Source: Collinsella sp. | GTDB lineage: Bacteria; Actinomycetota; Coriobacteriia; Coriobacteriales; Coriobacteriaceae | NCBI GenBank assembly: GCA_019425015.1 | Contig: JAHYYJ010000002.1 | Location: 118,236 to 182,235, forward strand | DNA length: 64,000 bases | Direction: 5' to 3' | Shown here: piece after piece, positions 3,716 to 59,160 of the stretch | How the letters are laid out: each line of letters opens with the position of its first letter | How positions within the stretch are numbered: position 1 is the first letter of the stretch | Notes under the pieces: generated by a model | Databases searched by the model: none | Told to the model about the DNA's origin: nothing | What the model saw: the letters and a program-made list of their open reading frames with translations, nothing else | Program-made: the position numbers and the translations under genes

Positions 3716-3897
3716 TTGACAACTAGGACGATGTCGATGCCTTGGAACCGACAGCGAAAGCCCGTCAGAGCGAGCAAGGTGCCTTGAAACGAGACGGCAT
3801 TGACCTTCTGGTCATGCCGCCGAAGTTGAAAGGCAGATTGCCGCTCTGGCGGGCTTGCAGCGTCAAGTGGTTACGGCGTTTGGTAAAACGCCGTAAC
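3716..3897. ncRNA. unassigned structured element, copy A (paralog at 36256-36436)
   Basis: Near-gapless (one 1-nt indel) ~181-nt alignment to copy B. The 13-mer TGACCTTCTGGTC is identical and the junctions are conserved. Four helices differ in sequence but stay complementary. Confidence 0.5.
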
Positions 3898-4799
3898 TAA
3901 AACCCGTGGCGCTCCAGGAAGCGGAAGGCCAGGCGGATCCAAGGACGGACTGCCACTTGCTTGTCCTCGTTGTCGACCGCGGTATTGGCGTTGCCGAGCG
4001 AAAGGCCGTGGCCACCCTGGTCAAAGACGTGCATCTCGCATGCGACCCCTTCCTCGGCCATGCGCTGCGCAAACGGATAGACCTGCGCAATCGGCGCCGT
4101 CTTGTCGTCCGAAACGCCCCACACAAAGGTCGGAGGCATCTGGCGCGAAACGTGCGTGGTAGGGCAAATGTCGGCCAGGTGCTCATCGGTCGCCTCGCCG
4201 CCCGTCACCATCGACAGATAGTCGTTGAGCAAATCGCGCCCCGTCTTGCCACCCGTCTTGGGCACGCGCAGGTCGATGCGCGGGTCGCGCGTCTGCATAT
4301 CGCGCACATAGGCAAGGTCGAGCAACGGATAGCCCAGCACCACGGCGTCGGGACGAATATCCTCCGGACGAGCCCCGGCAAGGCCCGCGAAAGGTCCGGT
4401 CTTCCACTGCGTTGCCAACGAGGCGCAGATCATGCCGCCCGCCGAGAAACCCACGATGCACACGCGCTTGGGATCGACATGCCACTCGTCGGCGTTGGCG
4501 CGAACCGTGGCGACCATCTTGGCAAGGTCTGCCTGCGGGTGAGGAAAGCTCACGTCGCCCGTGCCACTTGTCACATAGTTGAGCACAAAGGCCTGGTAGC
4601 CGCGGTCCAAAAACGCAAACGCCACGGGATCCTGCTCATGCGGAGCGATATGCGTAAACGCACCTCCGCCGCAGATAATCACGGCAGGGCGGCGGCCATT
4701 CGGCTTATCGGGCAGCGGCTCGGCACCCAAATACGTAAACGTCGCCGGATACTCCTCGGTCGGCTCCTCGCCCCACAGCGCATGGTTCTCGACAATCAT
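3897..4799 (-). CDS. alpha/beta hydrolase (esterase/lipase family)
   Basis: ORF 3897..5006. Nucleophile elbow GFSAGG and oxyanion-like ICGGGAF. Start moved to ATG 4799 (MIVENHALW) behind a GGGAG RBS. Confidence 0.8.
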   Translation of the reverse strand: MIVENHALWGEEPTEEYPATFTYLGAEPLPDKPNGRRPAVIICGGGAFTHIAPHEQDPVAFAFLDRGYQAFVLNYVTSGTGDVSFPHPQADLAKMVATVRANADEWHVDPKRVCIVGFSAGGMICASLATQWKTGPFAGLAGARPEDIRPDAVVLGYPLLDLAYVRDMQTRDPRIDLRVPKTGGKTGRDLLNDYLSMVTGGEATDEHLADICPTTHVSRQMPPTFVWGVSDDKTAPIAQVYPFAQRMAEEGVACEMHVFDQGGHGLSLGNANTAVDNEDKQVAVRPWIRLAFRFLERHGF

Positions 4800-10503: not shown

Positions 10504-11290
10504 GCTCTCGCACGTCAAGAAGACCTTTAACAAGGGCACCGTCACCGAGAAGCGCGCGCTCACCGGCGTCGACCTTACCCTCAACGACGGCGACTTTGTA
10601 ACTGTGATCGGCGGCAACGGCGCCGGCAAATCCACGCTGCTCAACATGATTGCCGGCGTATATCCGCTCGATTCGGGCGTTATCGAGCTCGACGGCACCG
10701 ACATCTCGCGCCTGAGCGAGTCGCAGCGCGCCAAGTACCTGGGCCGCGTGTTCCAGGATCCCATGCGCGGCACCGCAGCCGACATGCAGATTGCCGAGAA
10801 CTTGGCCCTCGCCAAGCGTCGCGGCCAGCGTCGCGGCCTTTCGTGGGGCGTCACCAAGGCCGAGAAGGACGAGTACGTTGAGTTGCTCAAGCGCCTGGAC
10901 CTTGGCCTGGACACGCGCCTCAACGCCAAGGTCGGCCTGCTTTCGGGTGGCCAGCGCCAGGCACTCACGCTGCTCATGGCCACGCTCACCAAGCCGCGCT
11001 TGCTGCTGCTCGACGAGCACACCGCGGCACTCGACCCCAAGACCGCCTCTAAGGTGCTCAATCTGACCGAGGAGATTGTCGACGAGAACCACCTGACCAC
11101 GCTCATGGTCACGCACAACATGAATGACGCCATCCGTCTGGGCAATCGCCTGATCATGATGCACGAGGGCCACGTTATCTACGACGTGGCGGGCGACGAG
11201 AAGAAGTCGCTCACCGTCGCCGACCTGCTGCAGAAGTTCGAGGAGGTCTCGGGCGGCGAGCTCGCCAACGACCGCATGCTGCTGAGCTAA
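10496..11290 (+). CDS. ABC transporter ATP-binding protein
   Basis: ORF 10415..11290. Start at ATG 10496 (MLKLSHVKK). Walker A GGNGAGKST, signature LSGGQRQ, Walker B LLLLDEH. Confidence 0.9.
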   Translation: MLKLSHVKKTFNKGTVTEKRALTGVDLTLNDGDFVTVIGGNGAGKSTLLNMIAGVYPLDSGVIELDGTDISRLSESQRAKYLGRVFQDPMRGTAADMQIAENLALAKRRGQRRGLSWGVTKAEKDEYVELLKRLDLGLDTRLNAKVGLLSGGQRQALTLLMATLTKPRLLLLDEHTAALDPKTASKVLNLTEEIVDENHLTTLMVTHNMNDAIRLGNRLIMMHEGHVIYDVAGDEKKSLTVADLLQKFEEVSGGELANDRMLLS

Positions 11291-11344
11291 AACCTGCCAA
11301 AAAGGGACATGCCAAAAAGGGACAGGTTTATTTTGGCAGGTTTT
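11289..11344. terminator. bidirectional terminator hairpin, GGGACA-repeat family
   Basis: AAAACCTGCCAAAA ... TTTTGGCAGGTTTT. The loop carries two copies of CCAAAAAGGGACA. A near copy in inverted orientation lies at 42083-42122. Confidence 0.6.
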
Positions 11345-11359
11345 ATCTGCGCAAACATC

Positions 11360-11399
11360 AAAACCGCCGCAAAGGGACAGACGCCCTTGCGGCGGTTTT
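11360..11399. terminator. terminator hairpin, GGGACAG family
   Basis: AAAACCGCCGCAAAGGGACAGACGCCCTTGCGGCGGTTTT. Confidence 0.6.
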
Positions 11400-11497
11400 C
11401 GCTAACCCCCATATCGAGCACAGAAGCCCGTACGATGTGATCGGACTGGCTTCTTGATGGGTATCATGGTTGGACGATCATTAGGAGGTTTCTCTAC

Positions 11498-21262: not shown

Positions 21263-22177
21263 CTACTCCTCCCCCATGAGCTCGCCGGCATTGTGGCGCA
21301 GCCACTCAAAGCACAGCGCGGTGGTCGCCTGGGCCACGTTGAGACTCTCGGTCATGCCGCGCTGGGGAAGCTTGGTCAAAAAGTCACATTTCTCGAGCAC
21401 CAGACGCGAGATGCCGTCGCCCTCGGAGCCCATGACGAGCGCCACGCGGCCCTCGAAGGGAGCATCCCAGCAGCTGCCCTCGGCATGCTCGGAAGCGCCA
21501 CCCACCCAAAAGCCGGCGGCCTTGAGGTCATCGAGCGCACGAGCGATATTGGGCACCTGCGCGATAGGCAGATGCATGACGGCGCCGGCGGAGGTCTTGT
21601 AGCTGCCCACGGTCACGCCGGCGGCACGCTTGTTGGCGATGATGACGCCCGCTGCGCCCACAACCTCGGCAGAGCGCACGATGGCGCCAAAGTTACCGTC
21701 GTCGGTCACATGGTCGAGCACCACGACAAGCGCCGGGCCCTCGCCTGCGCGGTCGAGGATGTCGGCGACATCGGCGTAAGGGAAGTTGCCCACCTCGAGC
21801 GCAATGCCCTGGTGAGCGCCATGGCTCGACAGCGCATCGAGCTGCGCGCGCGGCACATACTTAATGCGGACACCCGTGGCGTTGAGGTCATCGACCAGGC
21901 GCGACAGAGCGGCATCGCGCTCCCCGCCCTCGGCGATGAGCGCGCACTTGATGGGAAAACCGGTGCGCAGCGCCTCGGCGGCAGCACGACGACCTTCGAT
22001 AAACTCGCCCTTGGGAACCTGGATAGCGTCGCGGTTACGATCACGTTGCGGACGTGCGGCCTGGGCGCGATCGCGCTGGCCCTTGGGAGCGGCAGCGCGG
22101 TCGTTGCGGCGAATCGGACGCGAGCCAGAAGCAGTCTGCTTGCCGCCACGAGGCGCACGCTTGCGATTGTCGGCCAT
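21263..22177 (-). CDS. rlmB: 23S rRNA (guanosine-2'-O)-methyltransferase, TrmH/RlmB family
   Basis: SpoU motifs (LDHVTDDGNFGAIVRSA, LVMGSEGDGIS, ESLNVAQA). Arg-rich N-terminal tail. Confidence 0.85.
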   Translation of the reverse strand: MADNRKRAPRGGKQTASGSRPIRRNDRAAAPKGQRDRAQAARPQRDRNRDAIQVPKGEFIEGRRAAAEALRTGFPIKCALIAEGGERDAALSRLVDDLNATGVRIKYVPRAQLDALSSHGAHQGIALEVGNFPYADVADILDRAGEGPALVVVLDHVTDDGNFGAIVRSAEVVGAAGVIIANKRAAGVTVGSYKTSAGAVMHLPIAQVPNIARALDDLKAAGFWVGGASEHAEGSCWDAPFEGRVALVMGSEGDGISRLVLEKCDFLTKLPQRGMTESLNVAQATTALCFEWLRHNAGELMGEE

Positions 22178-22320
22178 AAAACGGCCTCCTTAAATAGATA
22201 ACGAACAAGAATCGACCGTCCGAGCCATGGCACCTTGCCTTTCAATCGTCGGGCATGACCACCAGGTCTATGCCCTCCTCTTTCAAGGCAATCTGCCGCA
22301 CCTCGAACGGTCGACAAATA

Positions 22321-23787
22321 CTAGAGACTCTTAATACGAGTGCCCGCGGCAGTATCCTCAATGGTGAGGCCCAGGTCCTTGAGCTGATCGCGGATGGCAT
22401 CTGCCAGATCCCAGTTCTTGGCGGCACGGGCCTCGGCGCGGGCCTCGAGAATCTTGGCAGCAGCCTCGTCCACGTCGTCGCCCGTATAGGCAACCAGACC
22501 GGCGGCAACGCCCAGCAGGCCCAGCGGCAGCTCGACCTTGGGCTCAGGAAGCTCAACACCAAACGTATCGAGCAGCTCGACCAGCGTATCGGCGGCAGCC
22601 AAGGCTGCGGCCTTGTCGGCAGCGTCGCCCGCCTGCTCCAGATACTGGTTGCACTCGGTGACAAAGCCAAAGACGGCGCCCATGGCACCGGCGGTGTTAA
22701 AGTCGTCGTCCATGCACTCCTTAAAAGCGGCACGGGTCTCGGCGGCCTTGGCGGCAAACGCCTCGGATGCTGCCTCATCGGCATCGGCCGTCGCATGGTT
22801 CGCAGCCCAACGCAGGTTCTCGACCGTACCGGCGATACGCGCGAGCGAGTTCTCGGCACCCTCCAGGCGCTCCCACGAAAAGTCGAGCGGCGAGCGATAG
22901 CTCGTCTGCAGCATCAGCAGGCGCAGGGCGGCAGCGGAGTGCTGCTCGAGGACCTCGGCCAGCGTAAAGAAGTTGCCGAGCGACTTGGACATCTTCTCGC
23001 CGTCGACCAGCAGCATGCCCGTGTGCATCCAGGTGTTGGAGAAGCCCTGGTGCCAGGCGCAGGTAGCCTGGGCGCACTCGTTCTCGTGATGCGGGAAGGC
23101 AAGGTCGGAGCCACCGCCGTGGATGTCGATCGGGGTGCCCAGGTAGCGGTGCACCATGGCGGCGCACTCGGTGTGCCAACCGGGACGGCCCTCGCCCCAG
23201 GGGCTCGGCCAGCTGGGCTCGCCGGGCTTGGCGGCCTTCCACAGGGCAAAGTCGAGCGGGTCGTTCTTGTCCTCGTTCTCCTCGATGCGCGCGCCAACCA
23301 TCAGATCGTCGATGTTGCGGCCCGAAACCTGACCATAGTTGGGATCGCTGCGCACGGCAAAGTACACGTCGCCGTTATCGGCGGCGTAGGCATGGCCCTG
23401 CTCGATAAGCGTCTTGATCATAGCGATCATGGGGCCGATCTCCTTGGTGGCGCGGGGGCGCACATCGGGGTCGAGCACGTTGGCGGCACGCATGACGCCG
23501 ATGAACTTGTCGGAGAACTCCGTCGCGACCTCGGCGGCCGTGCGGCCCTGCTCGTTGGCGCGCTTGATGATCTTGTCATCGACATCGGTGAGGTTCTGGG
23601 CGAACGTGACCTCGTAGCCGCTCGCGATGAGCCAGCGACGAATCACGTCAAAGCTGATGAACGTGCGGGCATTGCCGATGTGGATGTTGTCGTAGACCGT
23701 GGGGCCACACACGTACATGCGGACCTTGCCGGACTCGATGGGCTGGAACTCTTCCTTTTTATGGGTAGCGCTGTTGTAGATACGCAT
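22321..23787 (-). CDS. cysS: cysteine--tRNA ligase
   Basis: Class I HIGN (YDNIHIGNARTF), KMSKS, and the cysteine-specific WHTECAAM motif. Confidence 0.95.
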   Translation of the reverse strand: MRIYNSATHKKEEFQPIESGKVRMYVCGPTVYDNIHIGNARTFISFDVIRRWLIASGYEVTFAQNLTDVDDKIIKRANEQGRTAAEVATEFSDKFIGVMRAANVLDPDVRPRATKEIGPMIAMIKTLIEQGHAYAADNGDVYFAVRSDPNYGQVSGRNIDDLMVGARIEENEDKNDPLDFALWKAAKPGEPSWPSPWGEGRPGWHTECAAMVHRYLGTPIDIHGGGSDLAFPHHENECAQATCAWHQGFSNTWMHTGMLLVDGEKMSKSLGNFFTLAEVLEQHSAAALRLLMLQTSYRSPLDFSWERLEGAENSLARIAGTVENLRWAANHATADADEAASEAFAAKAAETRAAFKECMDDDFNTAGAMGAVFGFVTECNQYLEQAGDAADKAAALAAADTLVELLDTFGVELPEPKVELPLGLLGVAAGLVAYTGDDVDEAAAKILEARAEARAAKNWDLADAIRDQLKDLGLTIEDTAAGTRIKSL

Positions 23788-27007: not shown

Positions 27008-27043
27008 CGCCAAACGCAATCGCTCAAAACTCAACGCCAGTAC

Positions 27044-27078
27044 AAGGCCTCATGCAAAGTTTTGCATGAGGCCTTTTC
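27044..27078 (+). terminator. rho-independent terminator of mntP
   Basis: AAGGCCTCATGCAAA / TTTGCATGAGGCCTT followed by TTT. Confidence 0.75.
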
Positions 27079-27079
27079 G

Positions 27080-27120
27080 TGCAGACTTTTGCATGTCATA
27101 CTGATATGCAAAAGTCTGCA
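27080..27120 (+). promoter_or_regulatory. perfect 15-bp inverted repeat, putative HipB operator overlapping the hipBA promoter
   Basis: TGCAGACTTTTGCAT (27080-27094) and ATGCAAAAGTCTGCA (27106-27120) flank a CATACT -10-like hexamer. Confidence 0.6.
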
Positions 27121-27134
27121 TGTTGGAGATCGCC

Positions 27135-27566
27135 ATGGATACCATTCCCATCACCACACCACGCCAAGCTGGCATCTACGTGCGCCAGGCACGCGAGGCT
27201 CAGGGTCTCACCCGTGCCGCCCTCGCCAAAACGGCCAGTGTTTCGGAGCGCCTGCTCGCATCGCTCGAGCTAGGAGACGCCACCGGCATTCGACTCGACA
27301 AGTTGCTGTCCGTCTTTAACGCACTCGGCATAGGTCTCTTTGCGCAAAGCGATAACGACTCCATCGCATCGCCCTCCGAACATCCGACGACGAAAGCGGA
27401 CCTCCCTATCGCGAACTCGAATGCCCTGCCAAAGCCAAGCGTAGGCAGACGACCCGCTCGACAGGGAACGCCATCTTCCTATGGTGCCTTGCTGGCCCAA
27501 ATCGCAGCCGAGCAAGGCCTTTCCGACACTTCAGACCTCTCCTTTGGCTGTAAGGTTGTGAAATAA
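27135..27566 (+). CDS. hipB: XRE-family HTH antitoxin (HipB-like) with long C-terminal tail
   Basis: ORF 27120..27566. HTH QAREAQGLTRAALAKTASVSERLLASLE. ATG 27135 after GGAG. Abuts hipA. Confidence 0.75.
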   Translation: MDTIPITTPRQAGIYVRQAREAQGLTRAALAKTASVSERLLASLELGDATGIRLDKLLSVFNALGIGLFAQSDNDSIASPSEHPTTKADLPIANSNALPKPSVGRRPARQGTPSSYGALLAQIAAEQGLSDTSDLSFGCKVVK

Positions 27567-36119: not shown

Positions 36120-36255
36120 ATAGACGCTCCCTTCCTACCGACTAACCCCCATCCTAGGCAGCAACGGCTAAAGGAAACATAAAAGAGACGGCTGCCATGC
36201 GAGCCATGTGCTCAATAGCCGTTGGGTAGTCGTTTAAGAACGTCCCCAATGACTA

Positions 36256-36436
36256 TTGACGGCCAAGGCAACGCCGATGTTTTGGCAACGACAGCGAGCG
36301 GGTCGCATTTGAGACAAGGTGACGTGAAACGAAAGGGCGCTGACCTTCTGGTCGCGCCCTTGAAGTTGAACGTCAGATTGTCCAAATGCGGCCCGCGCAG
36401 CGTCGAGCCGTTACGCGGTTCGTAGAACCGCGTAAC
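36256..36436. ncRNA. unassigned structured element, copy B (paralog of 3716-3897)
   Basis: Same length and architecture as copy A. Helices 36298-36315/36380-36396, 36320-36325/36370-36375, 36333-36340/36354-36361 and 36410-36420/36426-36436. Confidence 0.5.
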
Positions 36437-36439
36437 CCC

Positions 36440-38404
36440 CTAGTACATCTTTGCGCCGGCGGGGATGGAGGCGTCGAGCTGGATCAGGTTGAGACGCTCC
36501 TCACCATCCTCCTCGTGGATAGCGCTGATGAGCATGCCGCAGCTGGGAATGCCCATCATCTTGCGCGGAGGCAGGTTGGTGATGGCGAGCAAGGTCTTGC
36601 CGACCAGGTCCTCGGGCTCATAATAACCGTGAATGCCGGAGAGGATGGTGCGGTCGGTGCCGGTGCCGTCGTCGAGCGTAAAGTTCAGCAGCTTCTTGGA
36701 CTTCTTGACGGCCTCGCACGCCTTGACCTTCACAGCGCGGAAATCGCTCTTGGAGAAGGTATCAAAGTCGACGAACTCCTCAAACAGCGGCTCGACGGCG
36801 ATCTTGGAGTAATCGAGCGTGGGCTTAAGCGACTTAACGAACGGGCTCGCGGCGTTGCCGGCCTCGGCAGCCTTGGCGGCAGCGGCACCGGACTGGAAAC
36901 CCTTCTCGGGCTTCATGTGCGGGAACAGCAGCACGTCGCGGATGGAAGCCTGGTTGGTGAGCAGCATGACCACGCGGTCGATACCGATGCCGATGCCGCC
37001 CGCGGGAGGCATACCGTACTCGAGGGCGCGCACGTAGTCCTCGTCGTACTCCATGGCCTCATCGTCGCCACCAGCCTTCTCGGCCATCTGGGCGGCAAAG
37101 CGCTCGGCCTGGTCGACCGGGTCGTTGAGCTCGGAGAACGCATTGGCGTACTCGTGACCGGCGATAACCAACTCAAAGCGGTGCGTCAGGCGCGGGTCGT
37201 CCTCAAAGCGCTTGGCAAGCGGACTGACCTCGATGGGGTAATCGCACACGAACGTGGGGTTGACGATGGTGTCCTCGCCCAGCTCATCGTAGATCTCGGC
37301 GATAATCTTGCCGGCGGTCCACTCGGGCTTAATCTCCAGGCCCTTCTCGCGCGCGGCAGCAGCAAGCTCCTCGACCGGCGTATCGATGGTGACCTGTTTG
37401 CCGAGCACGTCGGAGACGATGTCGGTCATGGGACGGCTGGCCCACTCACCAGAAAGGTCGATGGTCTGGCCCTGGTACTCGATGACCTCGGGGTTGCCGA
37501 TGGCCTTGTTAGCCGCCTTAATGACACCTTGGGCGAGCGCCTTCATGCCCTCGAGGTCGGAGAAGGCACGATAGGCCTCCATCGTGGTGAACTCGGGGTT
37601 GTGGGTAAGGTCCATGCCCTCGTTACGGAAGATACGGCCGATCTCGAACACGCGCTCAAAACCGCCGACGATGCAGCGCTTGAGGTGCAACTCGGTAGCA
37701 ATGCGCAGGTAGCACTCCTGATCGAGCGCGTTGAAGTGCGTGATGAACGGCTTGGCAGTAGCGCCGCCCTGGATGGTCTGCAGGATGGGGGTCTCGACCT
37801 CCATGTAGCCGTCGGACTCCATAAAGCGACGGAAGGTGGAGAGAATCTGCGAACGCTTACGGAAGGTCTCGCGAACGTCGTCGTTGGCGATCAGGTCAAC
37901 ATAGCGCTGGCGATAGCGGGTCTCCTTGTCGGAAAGACCGTGGAACTTCTCGGGCAGCGGACGAACGGCCTTGGCAAGCAGGGTCGCGCTCTTAGGGGCA
38001 ACGGAAAGCTGGCCGCGCTGGGTGCGCACAACCACGCCGGTCACGCCCAGGATGTCGCCCAGGTCGAGGGACTTGAGCGTATTCCAGGCGGCCTCGTCCA
38101 TGTCGTTGATGCGGCAGAACAGCTGAATCTCGGCAGTCGCATCGCGTACGACGATGAACATGATCTTGCCCTGACCGCGCTTGGCGACCACACGGCCGGC
38201 GATCTTCACGACGTCCTCGGTGTCCTCGCCATCGGCAAGCTCGGCGTACTTAGCCTCGATATCGGCAACGTAGTCCTCAAGCTCAGAGTGCTCGGGATAG
38301 GGGTTCTGGCCCGCCTCGAACAGGGCGGCGCGCTTGGCCAGGCGGGTGGCGCGCTCGTCGTTGAGCGTCGATGCCTGATCTGCGGCGTTCTGGTTCTCTG
38401 CCAT
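36440..38404 (-). CDS. lysS: lysine--tRNA ligase (class II) with C-terminal tRNA-binding (Trbp111/CsaA-like) domain
   Basis: The LysRS core ends at LLFPHMKPE. An extra ~150 aa follow with FRAVKVKACEAV..KKLL..LSGI..LVGK..NLPPRKMMGIPSCGML. Confidence 0.9.
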   Translation of the reverse strand: MAENQNAADQASTLNDERATRLAKRAALFEAGQNPYPEHSELEDYVADIEAKYAELADGEDTEDVVKIAGRVVAKRGQGKIMFIVVRDATAEIQLFCRINDMDEAAWNTLKSLDLGDILGVTGVVVRTQRGQLSVAPKSATLLAKAVRPLPEKFHGLSDKETRYRQRYVDLIANDDVRETFRKRSQILSTFRRFMESDGYMEVETPILQTIQGGATAKPFITHFNALDQECYLRIATELHLKRCIVGGFERVFEIGRIFRNEGMDLTHNPEFTTMEAYRAFSDLEGMKALAQGVIKAANKAIGNPEVIEYQGQTIDLSGEWASRPMTDIVSDVLGKQVTIDTPVEELAAAAREKGLEIKPEWTAGKIIAEIYDELGEDTIVNPTFVCDYPIEVSPLAKRFEDDPRLTHRFELVIAGHEYANAFSELNDPVDQAERFAAQMAEKAGGDDEAMEYDEDYVRALEYGMPPAGGIGIGIDRVVMLLTNQASIRDVLLFPHMKPEKGFQSGAAAAKAAEAGNAASPFVKSLKPTLDYSKIAVEPLFEEFVDFDTFSKSDFRAVKVKACEAVKKSKKLLNFTLDDGTGTDRTILSGIHGYYEPEDLVGKTLLAITNLPPRKMMGIPSCGMLISAIHEEDGEERLNLIQLDASIPAGAKMY

Positions 38405-58675: not shown

Positions 58676-58689
58676 AAGATCACCTGCCT

Positions 58690-58875
58690 CTTTCATCCGG
58701 ACTCTAACCGTTGGTACTGGGATCTCACCAGTTCAGCCGGCATGCGAACCAACGCACACACGGGTCGCGGACTCATCGGCTCGGTCGCAGGCACTTTACC
58801 TGCGCCACGGCGCCCCTTTGACACCGCCCGATTTACCGCCAGTGGGGAATTTCACCCCGCCCTGAAACAGCAATT
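58690..58875 (-). promoter_or_regulatory. FMN riboswitch (RFN element)
   Basis: The minus strand reads CAGGGCGGGGTGAAATTCCCCACTGGCGGTAAA ... GACCCGTGTG ... GGTGAGATCCCAGTACCAACGGTTAGAGTCCGGATGAAAGAGGCAGG, ending at the ribU RBS. Confidence 0.9.
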
Positions 58876-58991
58876 GCAAGTGTAGCACGAGCAATCGTTC
58901 GCGCAAGTATGCCAAGGGTAATTTGTGGCGGGGACCAGTTGCCGCAACAACCACGTCCTCCGCCCACGCCGACCTCAAGGCCGTAAACGCA

Positions 58992-59134
58992 GGGGATCCG
59001 GGGGCGTGACGGGGCTTCTCTCCGGAACATTCCGCAGGACGCAAAGAGGCTCCGCAGCGCGAAGCGCGAAGCGGAGCCTCTTTGCATGTCCGAGGACGTT
59101 CCGGAGAGAAGCCCCGTCACGCCCCCGGATCCCC
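58992..59134. repeat. 143-nt GC-rich long palindrome downstream of groEL
   Basis: Perfect 37-nt arms at 58992-59028 and 59098-59134, plus an inner 15-bp stem at 59041-59055 and 59071-59085. Confidence 0.85.
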
Positions 59135-59160
59135 GGTGGGAGTTCTAGACCTTGTCGGCC

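Follow-up and report, generated by a model that had tools for sequence, protein, structure and literature searches.

Two structured elements in a 64-kb stretch of Collinsella DNA (contig JAHYYJ010000002.1; hereafter the window, to which all unlabelled coordinates refer) are the subject of this work: copy A at positions 3716–3897 and copy B at positions 36256–36436, both with the plus strand as the folded strand. We conclude with high confidence that A and B are members of a dispersed, modular, structure-constrained repeat family that is seen here only in Collinsella—an abundant and very diverse genus of the human gut—and that is present in tens of copies per genome. An earlier note, made from the letters of the window alone, had implied a two-copy element resembling a small RNA (sRNA) or a riboswitch; the element instead belongs to a high-copy, modular family of dispersed repeats found in at least 120 stretches.

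The size of the family was established by scanning an exact pattern, consisting of the inner loop and the apical hairpin, against a collection of species-representative genomes. At least 120 stretches carry the pattern. Among the matches listed, 114 are from Collinsella and six from unnamed metagenome-assembled genomes (MAGs), with no others; together they contain 90 distinct full copies, which sit in many different flanks. In metagenomes, a deeper core of the element (see below) was likewise found in at least 120 stretches, mostly labelled as human gut and with a GC content of 55–64%, adding approximately 40 further variants. A 0.9 Mb C. aerofaciens replicon in PLSDB carries 10–11 composite copies and at least four divergent, F-like rods. 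About 20% of copies are cut by contig ends, as expected of a repeat that breaks short-read assemblies. Viral contigs and phage genomes gave no match to the element, and the single match in PLSDB is the 0.9 Mb Collinsella replicon; an origin in phages or plasmids was thus rejected.

The Collinsella repeat unit is ~180 nt in length and consists, in order, of (i) a leader of ~35–40 nt, (ii) the motif CAGCGA, (iii) a rod of ~100 nt, (iv) the motif GCAGCGTC, (v) a linker of 4–5 nt, and (vi) a terminal hairpin of 11–12 bp. The 3' junction may also be written GCAGCGUC, and the two junction motifs are direct, not inverted, repeats. The information content of 58 upstream flanks places the start of family conservation ~38–40 nt upstream of the end of CAGCGA. 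The leader comes in three to four unrelated variants, as does the terminal hairpin; the rod helices come in many interchangeable sequence types, with conserved internal loops; and leader, rod type and hairpin variant reassort freely among copies. The parts of the two window copies, all on the plus strand, are as follows.

3718..3751, plus strand: copy A leader, one of the variants of the common leader CAAGGCAACGCCGATGTTTTGGCAACGA (flank listing, alignment, and the information-content profile of 58 upstream flanks).
3752–3757, plus strand: copy A 5' junction CAGCGA, nearly invariant among 84 copies and retained beside completely different rods.
3758..3856, plus strand: copy A rod, type A (minimum free energy (MFE) fold, pair counts, covariance model score of 168 bits).
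3758–3772/3842–3856, plus strand: copy A rod helix P1 (MFE fold, pair counts).
3774–3777/3838–3841, plus strand: copy A rod helix GCAA:UUGC, followed by a GG/GA loop.
3780–3785/3830–3835, plus strand: copy A rod helix P1b.
3786–3792/3822–3829, plus strand: copy A rod, GA-rich loop.
3793–3800/3814–3821, plus strand: copy A rod helix P2, with a bulged U at 3801.
3802–3813, plus strand: copy A apical GACC-UUCU-GGUC.
3857..3869, plus strand: copy A 3' junction GCAGCGTC (3857–3864) and a 5-nt linker.
3870..3897, plus strand: copy A terminal hairpin of 11–12 bp (GTTACGGCGTT...AACGCCGTAAC).
36258..36291, plus strand: copy B leader, canonical variant i.
36292..36404, plus strand: copy B CAGCGA (36292–36297), type B rod (36298–36396) and GCAGCGTC (36397–36404); covariance model score of 170 bits.
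36405..36436, plus strand: copy B linker and terminal hairpin (hairpin 36410–36436).

Reading both segments and aligning them recovers all of the motifs, coordinates and helices (P1, P1b, P2) that the earlier note had listed. Its single 1-nt indel is upheld by a MAFFT alignment of A and B, in which the sole internal indel lies in the loop of the terminal hairpin; the two hairpins additionally differ by a two-pair GC/CG swap. The identical 13-mer TGACCTTCTGGTC occurs exactly twice in the window. The 5' limits of the element had been placed correctly to within a few nucleotides, but the TTGAC shared by A and B at this end is not conserved in other copies. An outer GAC:GTC closure does not hold up: the base preceding CAGCGA is hypervariable and uncompensated, and the outer closing helix, together with a leader hairpin, was rejected for lack of covariation.

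That selection acts on a rod-like secondary structure, the purine-rich internal loops of which are conserved, is supported by both the folding of the individual copies and the covariation across the family. On the plus strand, copies A and B fold with MFEs of –92.0 and –97.9 kcal/mol (z-scores of –10.7 and –12.2; 0/200 shuffles fold as well), versus –84.0 and –86.9 kcal/mol on the minus strand, and a family covariance model built from 84 copies scores them at 168–170 bits. For covariation, 35 representatives of no more than 90% mutual identity were chosen; all 35 variant types share the same fold. Alignment of 32 rod variants gave 27 pairs in RNAalifold, 26 of which show compensatory double changes. 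With the structure held fixed, 93.5% of cells pair, compared with 67.0 ± 1.1% upon shuffling (0/500) and 36–44% when the pairing partner is slid by 1–3 columns; the covariation score is 0.709 versus 0.205. The earlier note had read the different but complementary helices of A and B as a sign of structural selection. This reading stands, and the covariation among 32 variants removes the caveat that it drew on only two copies.

The fold is also asymmetric with respect to strand. With RNA parameters, the purine-rich strand (plus for A and B, minus for the third window copy described below) has the lower folding energy in 34 of 35 variants, the mean difference being 11.3 kcal/mol; with DNA parameters the same is true of 33 of 35, with a difference of 4.5 kcal/mol. 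At the consensus level the 27 pairs include 32 G-U versus 13 A-C, and a tandem UG/UG is retained in 15 of 16 class-2 rods, which on the other strand would be a tandem C-A mismatch. Recent mutations do not help to assign the strand (38 G-U versus 47 A-C events show no bias), which is called from loop chemistry and from differences that are older and fixed. The strand had previously been left open; for folding it is now the plus strand at A and B.

Besides types A and B, orthologous and other fetched loci yielded rod types C, D, E, G, H and I, which have the same junctions and partly or wholly different rods; type D rods are unrelated sequence that replaces rods wholesale at the same locus. Most of these additional types share a deeper core, 5'-GAAAGAGGAG(G/C)G ... 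C(C/G)CGACGA(A/U)UGA-3'. In the core, the two strands of the GA-rich symmetric loop can be drawn as a series of three sheared G-A pairs in tandem, with A-U, A-U and G-C pairs separating them, and the loop is predicted to be able to form stacked tandem sheared G-A pairs. The outer AGGU/AGAU loop is flippable, being present in both strand orientations. A coding role was considered and rejected: some rod types contain a mini-open reading frame (ATG CCC GAC GAx TGA) and a Shine-Dalgarno-like GAGGAGG, but these are absent or out of frame in others, including A and B.

Genes were called by a simple GC3-based method, whose calls agree with the RefSeq annotation of one fetched locus (L241), and the position of the element relative to them was read with each copy oriented on its folded strand. 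Of 122 composite copies, 104 have a downstream neighbour encoded on the opposite strand, and in 97 of these 104 cases its stop codon is between –5 and +10 nt from the end of the hairpin (median 1 nt). The abutment of hairpin and stop codon, described in the earlier note, is thus a family-wide hallmark. Lone rods, lacking leader and hairpin, also exist; their neighbour is on the opposite strand in 40 of 44 cases, with 22 of those within –5 to +10 nt. In the annotated 40-kb L241 stretch, all three copies follow the stop-codon rule. On the leader side, by comparison, the neighbour is co-oriented with the element (giving a convergent gene pair) about as often as it is opposite (giving a tandem arrangement), at a median distance of ~190 nt.

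Between convergent genes, two units may lie back to back, each facing its own gene, and so orientation follows the local gene rather than the replichore. Orientation set by replication was accordingly rejected, as copies 200 nt to 20 kb apart point in opposite directions, each in step with its own local gene. The hairpin junction reads AAC, then 0–5 pyrimidines, then TA: on the plus strand the hairpin is followed by Y(0-5)-TA..., and on the minus strand by GGCTCGACGC.... A target-site duplication or TA target was rejected as an explanation of this junction, for the TA is the TAG or TAA stop codon itself. The stops beside the element number 89 TAG, 32 TAA and 2 TGA, against a background of 534, 498 and 119 (TAG 72% versus 46%); the excess of TAG is accounted for by a 1-nt overlap with the terminal C. 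Among sampled Collinsella genes from all fetched loci, stops are 46% TAG, 43% TAA and 10% TGA.

Both window copies conform to this placement, each lying between two minus-strand genes. Copy A is flanked by the stop of an alpha/beta-hydrolase gene on one side and the feoA-feoB start on the other, and the final base of its hairpin overlaps the TAG stop of the former (3897–3899, minus strand). Copy B is located between the stop of lysS (36440–36442, minus strand), which lies 3 nt past its hairpin, and the start of a ThrE-family gene (thrE). Across the family, the abutted genes are diverse housekeeping genes: lysS, tyrS, ileS, pheS, prfA, queA, rpoD, gyrB, htpG and pyrE. Four aminoacyl-tRNA synthetase genes (tyrS, lysS, ileS, pheS) are among 39 distinct abutted genes, and cysS (window 22321–23787) has a sense copy; these synthetase and housekeeping loci include L034, L014, L023, L194 and NZ_OY725717.1 459319–459477. 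Judging from this gene list, the abutted genes may be enriched for housekeeping and translation functions.

The family evolves in concert, with replacement of modules, perhaps via gene conversion or some form of mobilisation. At orthologous loci, rods of the same type are 98.7% identical, compared with 88.7% at third codon positions of the abutted gene, and 108 of 279 orthologous pairs carry different rod types; hairpin variants differ too. Truncated, nested and chimeric copies are found. Alleles with and without the element differ across the entire spacer, with no target-site duplication. Clustering of 1707 open reading frames (ORFs) in ~1.9 Mb around the copies—a crude test, with no domain search—revealed no recurrent transposase-like ORF. 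Terminal hairpins are almost never found without a rod. The idea that rods are insertions into a rod-less base element was rejected, as none of 157 tagged hairpins is rod-less.

Several individual copies illustrate the kinds of rearrangement seen. Three chimeric copies (L005 151–299, L002 7595–7743, and L225 at ~3277 on the minus strand) have 5' and 3' halves of different rod types, such that P1 is unable to pair; they have either truly recombined through the apical segment common to both types or been misassembled in MAGs at the repeat. In an E-type copy (L037 393–540, minus strand) the apical stem-loop is exactly inverted, with GACCAGAAGGTCT in place of AGACCTTCTGGTC: an inversion of the hairpin tip. 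At two loci (L150 76–284, L235 11644–11871), two lone class-2 rods lie in direct, head-to-tail tandem, 0–30 nt apart. The leader side in other genomes is crowded by at least three further short Collinsella repeat families that share a TTGGGGAC/GTCCCCAA core. Immediately upstream of copy B (window 36221–36255) is a half-unit of another dispersed, palindromic Collinsella repeat (GTAGTCGTTTAAGAACGTCCCCAATGACTA), which is also present in the 5' flanks of many loci (for example L016, L041 and L056).

The window contains more of the family than the two copies first reported. The third, divergent member and one further feature near copy B are listed here.

22212–22314, minus strand: lone F-type rod (covariance model hit of 34 bits, E 1.4e-5; orthologue L138 and related rods).
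36188..36207, minus strand: terminator-like hairpin and T-run, downstream of copy B as seen from lysS.

The F-type rod has neither junction motifs nor a terminal hairpin. Its folded strand is the sense strand: the rod begins 6 nt past the cysS stop (22321–22323) and ends ~35 nt before the start of a SpoU-methylase gene (22175–22177), and it folds at –67.4 kcal/mol versus –52.4 kcal/mol on the other strand. Given the order of features at copy B, the lysS mRNA probably carries the complement of copy B in its 3' untranslated region (UTR), which would be crossed before the terminator-like site at 36188..36207 is reached. Elsewhere in the window, positions 58975–59148 form a near-perfect, ~170-nt palindrome (MFE –160 kcal/mol, z –14.9) that adjoins an FMN riboswitch (58681–58873, minus strand) and is probably a different hairpin repeat. 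Paired strong hairpins at 27030–27135 and 11275–11410 (z –8.0 and –6.2) match the family model weakly; they look like ordinary terminator-type hairpins, unrelated to the family.

What might such an element do? The reading that we favour, with a probability of roughly 0.45, is an RNA-level module for gene 3' ends: a polar barrier or processing site, and stabiliser, that is maintained in the manner of REP/BIME/REPIN and bcr1 repeats. In this reading, the unit sits where the 3' end of the purine-rich strand, the one that folds best, meets the stop codon of an opposite-strand gene. Polymerases nearing the 3' end of that gene from the intergenic side—having read through from a convergent gene, or having started at spurious antisense sites—would transcribe the rod and hairpin, which would in turn stop, pause or process them prior to gene entry. 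On the abutted gene's own mRNA, the complementary structure would form a very stable fold directly after the stop codon. Copies would be homogenised and exchanged by copy-to-copy recombination or by some mobilisation, as in REP/BIME/REPIN and bcr1. While the placement and fold are observed, the ideas that the element is transcribed, works as a barrier or stabiliser and spreads in these ways are inferred. The reading draws on the size and distribution of the family, its covarying fold and strand asymmetry, its placement beside stop codons, its concerted evolution and the housekeeping nature of the abutted genes.

One locus offers a further argument for the 3'-end module: the empty allele L085 has a canonical bidirectional terminator where L079 and L020, from other species, carry the element, as if a terminator had been replaced. 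Canonical terminators are, though, found in 14 of ~110 element spacers and 64 of 462 background spacers, with no detectable depletion, and so the replacement argument is limited to this one locus. Canonical hairpin-plus-T-run terminators occur in only 10–17% of spacers by a simple scan of the fetched loci.

A number of further observations weigh against a 3'-end module. The terminal hairpin does not qualify as an intrinsic terminator: no U-tract follows it on either strand, and a consensus scan calls none at A or B, even though canonical U-tract terminators are in use in the genus. Past copy B on the lysS strand there is a separate terminator-like site. Fourteen copies in a tandem context, including the F-type rod, are in sense orientation. 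At ~55% of loci neither neighbour is encoded in the direction of the folded strand, and a sigma70-like promoter for the folded strand was detected in 5 of 226 upstream regions, compared with 14 on the other strand (a Collinsella consensus is not established); the source of folded-strand transcription is thus hard to name. No –10 element is common to the leader variants, and the TTGAC of A and B was rejected as a –35 box, lying at a spacing of 14 nt from any A2/T6 hexamer and being absent elsewhere. Rare within-type variants are unbiased between G-U and A-C, so that recent mutations look neutral. Finally, the conserved non-Watson-Crick loops would imply a specific reader (protein or RNA), which is needless for a plain barrier.

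A somewhat unlikely alternative is that the family is a selfish mobile or recombining DNA element (REPIN-, MITE- or PATE-like) that folds as single-stranded DNA (ssDNA), is read by some transposase or recombinase, and has no host function. Its site at stop codons would then mean either that this target is chosen or that insertions survive only where they do no harm. High copy number, near-identical copies across unrelated loci and species, breaks in assemblies, nested and truncated copies, chimeras, presence/absence polymorphism, and clustering with other Collinsella repeats all fit this picture, as do module swapping and type replacement at orthologous loci; in addition, the purine strand is the more stable with DNA parameters too (33/35), and recent mutations look neutral. 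Against it, there is no target-site duplication or clean insertion junction (alleles with and without the element are different along their entire spacer), and the copies sampled include no rod-less base element. No recurrent transposase-like ORF was found among the 1707 ORFs (by the crude test above) and phage and viral collections yielded no copy. Copies are oriented by the local gene and not by the replichore, and helices differ completely between types while asymmetric loops stay—the opposite of the conservation of terminal inverted repeats in MITEs. Distinctly unlikely is a multicopy family of independently transcribed sRNAs made from the purine-rich strand, acting in trans (for example as a scaffold or sponge for a protein reader of the GA-rich loops) or in cis (antisense to the 3' UTR of the abutted gene). 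No conserved promoter is apparent, with unrelated leader variants and a sigma70-like site in 5/226; the hairpin has no U-tract; lone rods have neither leader nor hairpin; some copies are inside operons in sense orientation; and at the type D loci unrelated sequence has replaced the rod. These points must be set against a layout like that of an sRNA gene with a consistent folded strand, conserved purine-rich loops with tandem-GA potential, a 3' hairpin that ends exactly where the convergent coding sequence begins, and a conservation of same-type sequence that exceeds that of synonymous sites.

Two readings modelled on known RNA classes fare worse. That A and B are minus-strand cis-regulatory leaders (riboswitches or attenuators) for feoAB and thrE, respectively, is so improbable that we give it almost no weight. 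Although they do lie ~170 nt and ~140 nt upstream of the starts of these minus-strand genes, feoAB and thrE are unrelated to one another, and neither copy stands in a sense-strand 5' relation to them. The minus strand folds worse and would carry A-C mismatches, and there is no Rfam riboswitch match. The family-wide context already contradicts a leader: the folded strand is antisense to its neighbours at most loci; leader-side neighbours are unrelated, in either orientation, co-directional in about half of loci and at variable distance; and what is constant is the link to the other neighbour's stop codon. Since the downstream neighbours of the abutted genes are unrelated, a riboswitch-like role is excluded. 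Also most improbable is a guide-RNA-like scaffold (omega-RNA- or PATE-like), in which the 3' flank—the end of the abutted gene—would guide a TnpB/IscB-type protein encoded elsewhere. The whole basis for this is resemblance: a structured scaffold that ends exactly at unique flanking DNA, in a multicopy family undergoing concerted evolution. The Rfam models for IS605-orfB, HEARO and other omega-RNAs do not match, no adjacent or recurrent tnpB/iscB-like ORF was noticed in the ORF clustering, and there are no IS200/IS605-type ends or target motif.

It is also conceivable, if unlikely, that the family represents a new kind of RNA or ssDNA element, in which a Collinsella protein reads the triple tandem-GA and AGGU/AGAU loops. 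The rod might then serve (a) as a polar guard, bringing antisense transcription to an end precisely at stop codons, or (b) as a cassette, with rod exchange catalysed at the fixed CAGCGA / GCAGCGTC junctions. Option (b), if true, would constitute a new mobilisation mechanism aimed at the 3' ends of housekeeping genes, and a dedicated protein partner, if one exists, would make for a new RNA-protein or mobile-element system. Should the favoured 3'-end module be correct, and the element set transcript 3' ends or block antisense read-in, it would be a lineage-specific solution to termination in a genus with few canonical terminators by simple scan. There are practical consequences in any case. With its tens of copies in each genome, the family sits at the 3' ends of core genes (aminoacyl-tRNA synthetases, rpoD, gyrB, prfA); short-read assemblies break at it, and MAG contigs become chimeric because of it; and covariation screens will misread it as a novel sRNA. 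A family covariance model would aid both annotation and assembly.

We compared the element with known structured RNAs and repeat families. At the gathering thresholds of Rfam 15, the whole window contains only the FMN riboswitch and seven tRNAs; at E ≤ 10, only chance-level matches of 9–16 bits were obtained on A, B and the F-type rod, together with terminator look-alikes beside an I-type rod. The earlier note's failure to assign a class is borne out by this search, which gave nothing at gathering and nothing meaningful at E ≤ 10, with T-box, 6S, riboswitch and ribozyme models among those covered. The Collinsella-1 motif (RF01700), reportedly described by Weinberg and colleagues in 2010, is likewise a candidate structured RNA of Collinsella and the human gut whose function is not known; it does not match the three window copies even at E ≤ 10, and is a different element. 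A literature search by sequence and keywords returned nothing on the Collinsella element.

REP, BIME and REPIN sequences are thought to work as RNA hairpins that act as mRNA stabilisers or terminators. Like these repeats of Enterobacteria and Pseudomonas, the Collinsella family consists of high-copy, extragenic hairpin repeats that form modular mosaics, are lineage-specific, and evolve in concert. REP units are 20–40 nt long, their GTAG or CGTC tag is placed right against the stem, and they flank RAYT transposase genes; the Collinsella unit has no GTAG tag, is ~180 nt long, and has a hairpin of 28 nt preceded by GCAGCGTC and 4–5 nt. It further differs in its 100-nt rod with conserved non-Watson-Crick loops and helices that covary across many types, in being strictly antisense to the abutted gene, and in that no RAYT-like gene was seen among the neighbouring ORFs (no domain search). 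Both kinds of repeat lie after coding regions, between convergent or co-directional genes and often a few nucleotides from stop codons (PMC3733652). CGTC-tagged REPs have an unpaired CGTC at a stem of 8–9 bp that starts with A-T, a loop of 4–5 nt and a CCA tail, and are known from five phyla, none of which is Actinobacteria (Di Nocera et al. 2013, PMC3733652). In common with them, the Collinsella unit has an unpaired CGTC before a GC-rich palindrome, no known dedicated transposase, and a location downstream of coding regions. Its CGTC, however, lies 4–5 nt from a stem of 11–12 bp that starts with G-C/U-A, its loop is 4–6 nt, it has no CCA tail, and its hairpin forms just the 3' part of a larger unit.

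The repeats bcr1 (Bacillus cereus group) and ERIC/Correia (NEMIS) are dispersed, intergenic and 100–170 nt in length, with long hairpins that are co-transcribed with neighbouring genes. For these, compensatory retention of structure and effects on mRNA processing and stability have been reported, and they are MITE-like, with terminal inverted repeats and target duplications (TA, TTTAT). The Collinsella element, in contrast, follows no terminal-inverted-repeat logic and has no target-site duplication: its ends are a leader and a hairpin that are not mutually inverted, its empty alleles differ over the whole spacer, its junction motifs are direct, and its rods are swapped whole. Conserved terminator families, such as the mycobacterial TRIT and the inverted pairs of DUS/USS, are repeated stem-loops at gene 3' ends, often convergent and of restricted lineage. 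These are short, single hairpins, unlike the long Collinsella rod with its conserved internal loops, many covarying types and no U-tract.

To our knowledge, no REP, MITE, ERIC, Correia or bcr1 family combines covariation, non-canonical loops, placement at stop codons and rod swapping, and this combination was not found in the families compared (Rfam 15, PMC3733652). Conserved non-canonical loops together with base-precise, oriented placement are unexplained by any known repeat family. With the defining features of REP/BIME/REPIN, bcr1, ERIC and Correia failing wherever they could be tested, the Collinsella element is best described as a structured, dispersed intergenic repeat that belongs to no named family.

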